Assembly (NCBI GenBank): GCA_030614005.1
Contig: JAUWKS010000028.1
Location: 1-32,000 of the forward strand
Direction: 5' to 3'
From: Candidatus Heimdallarchaeota archaeon
GTDB lineage: Archaea; Asgardarchaeota; Heimdallarchaeia; JABLTI01
Length of the DNA stretch: 32,000 bases
Part shown: in pieces, positions 12,171-12,830 of the stretch
Numbering within the stretch: the stretch's first letter is position 1
Layout: every line of letters starts with the position of its first letter
Translations under genes and position numbers: made by a program
The notes under the pieces: model-generated
The model's database searches: none
Told to the model about the DNA's origin: nothing
What the model saw: only the letters and a program-made list of their open reading frames with translations

Positions 12171-12830
12171 ATGAGATACGTATTCGAACCATTAATCCTA
12201 CAGGCAATTTGTAAAGAAGTGTTAAAGAATGTTGAAAACTCAAATAAAAATTCAGAACAGAAGTTAAATGAATTATTTGATAAACTAACTGCGAAATTGG
12301 CTCAAGAGTTTCCAACTTATATTAATACAGAAGAACGTAATTGGATTTTTAACAATGCTGGTGGCGCAATGGGGTCACTAACATTATTACACGGGTCTCT
12401 GAAGGAATATTTGATTTTTTTTGGTACTCCTATTGGTACACATGGTCATTCAGGAAGATATCGAAGAGCAGATGTTTTTGATATAATGTTAGATGGAGAA
12501 ATGCTATGTTATAACGAAGATGAAATCACTCGAGCAACTTATTTGCCTGGTGATATGGCAATTCTAAAACGAAAACTAGCAAAAAGTTATCGAGTACCTG
12601 AAAGAGCTTGGATGTTAGAATACGCCCGAGGTAGTATTCCCGCTATGATTAGATTTGGCATTGGTGATAATCTCTACAGTAATTTTGATTATAAAAGCTC
12701 AAATCAGCTCATCAGAACTTACGGTAAAATGGTTGTTAAGAATCTCTTTAAGCTAAAGAAGAAAAGAAACTTACCTGTGAGCGAAATTTATCGGGAAATT
12801 TTTTTACAGAGTAAAATTGATACATTATAA
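12171..12830 (+). CDS. ERG2 / sigma-1 receptor family protein (sterol C8-C7 isomerase-like cupin fold), no N-terminal TM helix
   Basis: [40 protein letters not shown] and [13 protein letters not shown] closely match ERG2 ([25 protein letters not shown].GH) and SIGMAR1 (GHSGRY, WMVEYGRGVIP) as recalled; ATG 12171 follows an AGGTG SD. Confidence 0.9.
   Translation: [219 protein letters not shown]

Follow-up and report, generated by a model that had tools for sequence, protein, structure and literature searches.

An anchor-less ERG2/sigma-1 receptor family gene in a Heimdall-group archaeon and its probable lateral origin

Sterol handling is a trait whose origin in eukaryotes is debated. Here, we report a gene of the ERG2/sigma-1 receptor family on a contig of an Asgard archaeon, Candidatus Heimdallarchaeota archaeon (NCBI GenBank assembly GCA_030614005.1, contig JAUWKS010000028.1), of which positions 1 to 32,000 of the forward strand were analyzed and are referred to below as the window. 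The gene (12171..12830, + strand) is an open frame for 219 amino acids (aa) plus a stop codon, and its product is of the anchor-less prokaryotic type. The explanation that we prefer, with moderate confidence in it as a whole, is that this 219-aa protein is a functional, anchor-less, bacterial-type member of the ERG2/sigma-1 family, whose gene was acquired laterally and was then vertically maintained in one subclade.

Identity and predicted structure of the protein

The 219-aa protein matches the PF04622 (ERG2_Sigma1R) profile with an E-value of 1.1e-58 and 198.5 bits over profile positions 21-208 of 210, the gathering cut-off being 21 bits, and sequence comparison matched it to the sigma-1 receptor (SIGMAR1) chains in PDB at E 6e-29. 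An earlier note on this DNA, made from the sequence alone, had proposed an ERG2/sigma-1 homologue in an Asgard archaeon; these matches, on a Heimdall-group contig, bear the proposal out. Genome-wide search of the bearing genome (G000, a metagenome-assembled genome (MAG) of 3.6 Mb in 126 contigs, 90% complete and with 3.4% estimated contamination) detected one family member, at 203 bits.

The family motif and the acidic residues to which the note drew attention were found at the positions given there and aligned to SIGMAR1. The codon of Trp58, inside the motif, starts at 12342; Asp104 (12480..12482, +) is equivalent to SIGMAR1 Asp126, and Glu150 (12618..12620, +) to SIGMAR1 Glu172, which binds the ligand and is presumed to be the catalytic acid. 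In an alignment of 80 family members, the Glu150 column holds E in 78 and the Asp104 column holds D in 61, the fungal-type rows having F there and D two positions earlier. Tyr80 (12408..12410, +), the equivalent of SIGMAR1 Tyr103, is Y in 80/80. The counterpart of the GGWMG oligomerization motif of SIGMAR1 is GGAMG (residues 64-68; 12360..12374, +), whose G64 and G65 are almost invariant across the family.

A Kyte-Doolittle scan revealed no 19-mer of 1.8 or above anywhere in the protein and hence no transmembrane (TM)-like segment, which agrees with the proposed absence of a membrane anchor. As a special trait of this protein, however, that absence does not stand, because an anchor-less N-terminus is the rule among prokaryotic members of the family. 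The start MRYVFEP lines up with the MxYxF[ED]P starts of bacterial homologues. An alternative TTG start at 12141 was rejected, since homologues begin at the aligned MxYxF[ED]P and a Shine-Dalgarno (SD)-like element precedes the ATG at 12171.

The gene also has the TATA-like tract and SD element of its own that the note had described. A TATA-box-like element, TTTAAATA (12055..12062, +), lies about 110 bp upstream of the ATG, where it would act as promoter, and is preserved in the orthologous spacer of a sister species (G010, Ca. Heimdallarchaeota archaeon HM7_B34). The SD-like sequence AGGTGTGA (12158..12165, +) ends 6-8 nt before the ATG; its core is AGGTG (12158-12162), and AGGTGA is retained in G010. 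The presumed 5′ leader, downstream of the TATA-like box and ahead of the start codon, also contains a 6-bp stem free of mismatches and closed by a 3-nt loop (AGAGGT CTT ACCTCT, 12084-12098), which is only partly kept in G010.

The gene is intact and under purifying selection. The ratio of nonsynonymous to synonymous substitution rates (dN/dS) against orthologues is 0.12-0.16, with dS up to about 2, which indicates that the gene has long been retained by selection since its arrival.

An AlphaFold2 model built from the 80-sequence alignment had a mean predicted local distance difference test (pLDDT) score of 94.9 and a predicted template modelling score (pTM) of 0.91. Its layout comprises two N-terminal helices, a ten-stranded barrel, capping helices at residues 156-169 and 174-194, and an extra helix at 205-218. 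The predicted fold is a cupin-like beta-barrel closed by C-terminal helices, as in the SIGMAR1 structure 5HK1, and the Tyr80-Asp104-Glu150 triad is kept and, in the model, buried. In a Foldseek search, sigma-1 receptor structures were the only close matches of the model, steroid-bound Xenopus entries among them; comparison with 7w2e and 5hk1 gave TM-scores of 0.79-0.80 and a root-mean-square deviation of 1.9 Å over about 199 columns at 28-31% identity.

Folding of three copies gave an interface score (interaction prediction score from aligned errors, ipSAE) of 0.91 versus 0.02 for the best control, with at least 97% of contacts agreeing between runs and a partner pLDDT of 88. In a calibration made on two copies, 21 of 30 solved homomeric pairs attained the mark used for this score, as did 0 of 23 single chains, and the solved SIGMAR1 trimers may have been memorized by the predictor. 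Residues 63-65, in or adjoining GGAMG, lie within the predicted trimer interface.

The C-terminal region (12690..12827, +) is a putative peripheral membrane-binding surface, which according to DSSP analysis of the model consists of helix 174-194, the stretch KLKKKR (194-199) and helix 205-218. The last 25-30 residues or so are missing from the 186-aa bacterial homologues. As modelled, helix 174-194 is amphipathic and cationic (hydrophobic moment 0.43, mean hydrophobicity -0.14, net charge +5), whereas its SIGMAR1 counterpart is hydrophobic (mean hydrophobicity 0.39, charge +1). The basic tail that had been proposed is indeed present: it includes KLKKKR, and residues 190-219 contain 8 K/R versus 3 D/E.

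With regard to the pocket, we used 19 positions which we take from the 5HK1 literature to be those of the ligand site; all 19 letters agreed with a bird orthologue at those numbers. Myxococcota proteins are identical to the 219-aa protein at 16/19 of them, yeast ERG2 at 10/19 and SIGMAR1 at 9/19; anchor-less bacterial proteins overall are identical at 15-16. At the columns of the fungal-type H120/D124/F126 signature, which was read from the family alignment and is not an experimentally defined catalytic set, the 219-aa protein has Y97, V102 and D104, and the bacterial and SIGMAR1 types likewise have Y/V/D. At the columns of SIGMAR1-type V84, W89, V162 and W164, it has N61, A66, Y140 and V142.

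Sterol-pathway context and possible function

Published surveys describe Asgard archaea as having no sterol-pathway genes (PMC7306690 and PMC8237579). The note had likewise claimed that sterol-pathway context is lacking here, and the genome searches agree: squalene synthase (PF00494), squalene epoxidase (PF08491), oxidosqualene or squalene-hopene cyclase (PF13243) and cytochrome P450 (CYP51; PF00067) were not found in the 90%-complete G000. ERG4/ERG24 (PF01222) was not found in this genome either, a weak negative given that the search gave no match in any control genome. Squalene epoxidase was also not found in five other ERG2-bearing Asgard genomes. In either of the roles considered below, the 219-aa protein would not act in de novo sterol synthesis.

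Weak PF13243 matches were detected in four other genomes (G010, G260, G261 and G142) and none in G000. They are half-size alpha/alpha-toroid proteins of about 330-344 aa, and their identity as cyclases was rejected on account of this size and fold. The one in G010 (locus L030:994-2028, - strand, on contig C41 about 228 kb from the ERG2-family gene of that genome) is a 344-aa protein that scores weakly (36, 27 and 21 bits) against the two squalene-hopene cyclase domains and the prenyltransferase toroid, and those in two of the remaining three genomes are open frames of about 330 aa.

No conserved partner gene was found across the Asgard ERG2 loci, whose neighbours differ at every locus and include genes for radical SAM, DNA-alkylation repair, LuxE-like, EamA, GH38 and ClpB proteins; no reductase or sterol gene is among them. 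Two side observations concern such neighbourhoods. In a divergent branch of the Asgard proteins, an EamA-family transporter gene and the ERG2-family gene lie side by side in divergent orientation on two independent contigs (G140, L029:2250-3230 and 3482-4120; P0135, L037:208-1008 and 1199-1861). On the Polyangiales chromosome OZ245758.1, a 48%-identical homologue (L011:5980-6561), among the closest from bacteria, stands beside an AcrB-type resistance-nodulation-division pump and an HlyD-type adaptor, with no sterol gene within 6 kb of it.

A working mechanism can be proposed as follows. The protein would form a sigma-1-like homotrimer and attach peripherally to the membrane on its cytoplasmic side, with the polybasic tail and the C-terminal helices, which are flat, cationic and amphipathic, making the contact. 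The barrel may then take up a hydrophobic lipid, polycyclic or isoprenoid in nature, out of the bilayer; inside it, Glu150, kept in place by Asp104 and Tyr80, could stabilize a cationic centre. Stabilization of positive charge is common to the double-bond migration chemistry of ERG2 and to the amine-binding chemistry of sigma-1. Our guess for its activity is an acid/base shift of a double bond, as in ERG2, with either an endogenous isoprenoid or an exogenous lipid of sterol or steroid-like kind as the substrate; we place this just ahead of a purely ligand-binding or regulatory role.

Several considerations weigh against assigning an enzymatic role. Ligand and activity of anchor-less prokaryotic members are guesses, and residue conservation cannot separate an enzyme from a binder. 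To our knowledge, SIGMAR1 keeps the same triad yet has no isomerase activity. In addition, fungal ERG2 proteins have another arrangement of the acids (H120/D124/F126), which makes the catalytic analogy weaker than the analogy of fold.

Alternatively, the protein may resemble animal SIGMAR1 in being a regulator or chaperone that is gated by a ligand and catalyses nothing; a small hydrophobic or cationic compound would bind to the trimer, which would modulate partner membrane proteins. The absence of a sterol pathway in G000 and of a substrate-supplying neighbour at any Asgard locus would suit such a role, and so would the SIGMAR1-like fold and predicted trimer, the arrangement of Y120 and D126 (SIGMAR1 numbering), which is that of SIGMAR1 and unlike the fungal signature, and the Xenopus sigma-1 structures with progesterone and DHEA-S (dehydroepiandrosterone sulfate, according to the PDB titles), which represent steroid binding without turnover. 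However, where SIGMAR1 has its specific residues W89, V162 and W164, the 219-aa protein has A, Y and V, in common with members from fungi and bacteria, no partner gene is conserved, and stand-alone prokaryotic genes under strong purifying selection are probably often those of metabolic enzymes. Taken together, we consider a regulator of this kind unlikely, but worth keeping in view.

Genomic setting and origin of the gene

The gene occupies a single-gene cassette of 847 bp (12022..12868), made up of promoter region and gene, between two convergent conserved genes of the host. On the left is a Cys/Met-metabolism pyridoxal phosphate (PLP)-dependent enzyme (10767..12020, +; PF01053, E 1.7e-138) and on the right an ATP-grasp ligase (12864..14087, -; PF02655, E 2.3e-24), the latter convergent with the ERG2-family gene. 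Both flanking genes are present across the genus (the PLP enzyme gene in 11/11 genomes), and a DNA search of the genus revealed that they abut, with a gap of 0-80 bp, in G001 and G003-G009, so that the site is empty in eight congeners, namely G001 and seven other species. In the alignment, the G001 junction has AAGATCTAAT on one side and TTTTTCGATT on the other, which defines 12022-12868 as a one-gene indel bounded by CTAAT (12017-12021) and CTAAG (12864-12868), each of which overlaps the stop codon of the flanking gene.

The homologue P0005, 70% identical to the 219-aa protein, adjoins the same ATP-grasp gene on an independent contig that was recovered in two separate assemblies. In the ATP-grasp protein tree, the contig of P0005 groups with G000, G010 and G001, as (P0005 contig,(G000,G010,G001)) with support of 97/96, apart from seven other species. 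G001 is therefore a close relative within this subclade in which the cassette is missing at this site; in G001, the convergent neighbours end in overlapping stop codons (ATCTAATT), which is what a deletion between short repeats would be expected to leave. The simplest history is a single gain in the ancestor of the G000/G010/G001/P0005 subclade, followed by loss in G001 through such a deletion.

Beyond this site, the distribution of the family is patchy: PF04622 was detected in 2/11 genomes of the genus and in 9/399 genomes, belonging to 5/85 genera, of the phylum. The Asgard proteins form two clades. Clade A comprises the 219-aa protein, G010, P0004 and P0005 together with a divergent branch (G064, G140 and P0135), none of which has a TM helix. 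Clade B (G142, G232, G260, G261, a fragment from G258, and P0105) has a hydrophobic C-terminal helix that serves as a tail anchor, with a C-terminus such as ...KDIDILIKWLLIIGILIWFIFYGIPMIFNFF (loci L003 in G260, L004 in G232, L005 in G261, L006 in G142 and L009 for the G258 fragment); this topology is opposite to the N-terminal anchor of eukaryotic ERG2 and SIGMAR1. The cluster of P0105 includes MFX0026745.1, to which NCBI has already given the name 'ERG2 family protein [Candidatus Hermodarchaeota archaeon]'. The earlier note had entertained a gene with no other Asgard copies, and the presence of at least two Asgard clades proves this wrong.

The best non-archaeal matches are 186-aa anchor-less proteins with 48-52% identity over about 90% of the length and, where named, belong to Myxococcota, Myxococcales, Polyangiales or Dadabacteria. 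In a maximum-likelihood (ML) tree of the family (IQ-TREE, LG+C20+F+G4, 90 rows, 187 columns), the backbone is unresolved and contains clade A (support 93/94) and clade B (support 100/100) alongside proteins of Myxococcota, Dadabacteria and Spirochaetales. The named eukaryotes (bird and mollusc SIGMAR1, Galdieria and yeast) fell into two separate clades beyond a branch with support of 90/75. Thus, the tree favours a bacterial-type affiliation of the Asgard copies, at weak resolution.

Lateral acquisition is favoured by the 847-bp insertion in one subclade, the patchiness of 9/399 genomes, the placement in the ML tree and the Myxococcota-type pocket (16/19). The ultimate source of the gene may have been bacterial, within the Myxococcota-like anchor-less group. 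Carried on a one-gene cassette that included its own promoter, the gene entered this Heimdallarchaeial lineage in the common ancestor of the small subclade, and it was probably handed between Asgard lineages, given that its composition is fully host-like.

Some of the phylogenetic results count against a lateral, bacterial origin. With 187 columns the backbone of the tree is unresolved, and the donor is narrowed only to a 'Myxococcota-like group'. In the approximately unbiased (AU) test, neither a single clade of all Asgard rows (p 0.33) nor a clade of Asgard and SIGMAR1-type proteins (p 0.22) was rejected.

Both of these placements would suit an ancestral eukaryotic signature protein (ESP), the other origin that the note had considered alongside lateral acquisition from bacteria. 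According to this explanation, the Asgard ancestor of eukaryotes already had the family and handed it down to them vertically, the Asgard copies being relics and the bacterial copies secondary. The host is an ESP-rich Heimdall-group archaeon, and Hoshino and Gaucher term the evolution of ERG2 'complex' and its myxobacterial origin in eukaryotes, while possible, 'not conclusive' (PMC8237579). Nevertheless, the family occurs in just 9 genomes and 5 genera of the phylum, the insertion is restricted to a single subclade within one genus, other species of which have the site empty and intact, the pocket is bacterial in type, and G000 has no sterol pathway. Furthermore, the ML tree groups both Asgard clades with anchor-less bacterial proteins, the named eukaryotes lying beyond the 90/75 branch, and a clade of Asgard and all N-anchored eukaryote-type rows was rejected (AU test, p 0.0018), a result confounded by the split of the eukaryote-type rows into two clades, since forcing these together may contribute to it. 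The patchy distribution and the history of the insertion are stronger arguments against an ancestral ESP than the tree. Of the two origins in the note, the lateral one is thus preferred, and an overlooked ESP appears very improbable, even with the SIGMAR1-type grouping unrejected.

The related proposal that the Asgard ERG2-family proteins are one old archaeal clade and the true sister of the SIGMAR1-type eukaryotic proteins seems just as improbable to us. If it were true, the sigma-1/ERG2 fold would have come to eukaryotes via the archaeal host lineage, as a lipid-pocket protein predating bacterial-derived sterol synthesis, and the patchy distribution would reflect massive loss.

For the laterally acquired gene preferred here, the setting is clearly archaeal. 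The gene content of the window is an Asgard set, including genes for RNA polymerase subunit D (Rpb3-like, with an Fe-S insert), NOG1, RNA 3′-phosphate cyclase, ribosomal protein L13e (9388-10053), an EAP30/Vps36-family protein (19551-20243) and two adjacent Ras-family GTPases (30057-30635 and 30844-31413). The ERG2-family gene has a G+C content (GC) of 33% and a third-position GC (GC3) of 24.5%, the same as its flanks. In G010, the 362-kb contig JABCTZ010000032 has an 86%-identical copy with an identical gene order around it; this synteny indicates that the gene is not a contaminant, and the chimeric or contaminant flanks for which the note had allowed were not found. The stretch also recurs in independent Logan contigs from cold-seep and marine-sediment runs of four studies, and one of these contigs, 830 bp long, spans the left junction with zero mismatches. 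A separate feature of the window is that the ATP-grasp_3 ligase gene at 12864-14087 (-) has a paralogue 6 kb away (20335-21567, +), which adds a pre-ATP-grasp domain.

An assembly or binning artefact, in which a gene of a co-occurring bacterium or eukaryote was misjoined to the archaeal contig, might be suspected from the 126 contigs and estimated contamination of the MAG and from the right junction, which no read or contig among the short public Logan contigs bridges (a point against our explanation), but it is effectively refuted by the recurrence of this cassette at an identical position, with 86% DNA identity, on a long contig of another species, the P0005 copy beside the same ATP-grasp gene, GC and GC3 values equal to the flanks, the mismatch-free contig across the left junction, and upstream TATA-like and SD-like elements that are archaeal in type; contamination and chimerism were accordingly rejected.

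Significance and comparison with known systems

The protein type itself is ordinary. What is new is a documented, selected and syntenic ERG2-family gene in Heimdall-group and other Asgard genomes, together with a tail-anchored Asgard variant; we found no mention of an archaeal ERG2/sigma-1 homologue in the searchable literature. These results imply that a few Asgard lineages carry one 'late' sterol enzyme family as an orphan, probably as a bacterial import, and they call for caution against reading such orphan sterol-type genes as ESPs. The picture of the origin of eukaryotic sterol synthesis is not changed by the presence of this gene in Asgard archaea. On the other hand, the small soluble-looking members and the tail-anchored members of clade B are well suited to asking what the sigma-1/ERG2 pocket binds in sterol-free organisms, a question that applies equally to many anchor-less bacterial members.

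Among known systems, the 219-aa protein fits best into the subgroup of anchor-less bacterial 'ERG2 family proteins' of about 186 aa, which are also designated 'C-8 sterol isomerase' in NCBI and IMG. Both have the MxYxF[ED]P start, no N-terminal TM helix and the same fold family, as well as the pocket residues N84, A89, Y120, D126, Y162 and E172 (SIGMAR1 numbering), and the bacterial genes, like the Asgard copies, often lie outside sterol clusters. The 219-aa protein differs from them in its archaeal host, in a C-terminal polybasic stretch and extra helix, in a more cationic helix 174-194, and in the AT-rich, host-like codon usage of its gene.

Animal SIGMAR1 (5HK1, 6DJZ, 7W2B, 8W4B and 8WUE) resembles the 219-aa protein in the barrel with C-terminal helices, the Y103/D126/E172 triad and GGxMG, and a homotrimer is predicted for the archaeal protein. 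In contrast to SIGMAR1, however, the latter has no N-terminal TM anchor, its C-terminal helices are not hydrophobic but have a cationic, amphipathic character, and the context of the endoplasmic reticulum and BiP is inapplicable to it. Fungal ERG2 belongs to the same Pfam family and has N84, A89, Y162 and E172 in common with the 219-aa protein, but it possesses an N-terminal TM anchor and works within a complete sterol pathway, which G000 does not have.

The other Asgard ERG2-family proteins are likewise encoded by stand-alone genes with no sterol neighbours in AT-rich genomes from marine sediment. They and the 219-aa protein have in common ...VVKNLFK plus a basic motif where the last core helix ends. 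Clade B, at 42-46% identity, is distinguished by a tail-anchor TM helix in place of the polybasic amphipathic tail of the 219-aa protein.

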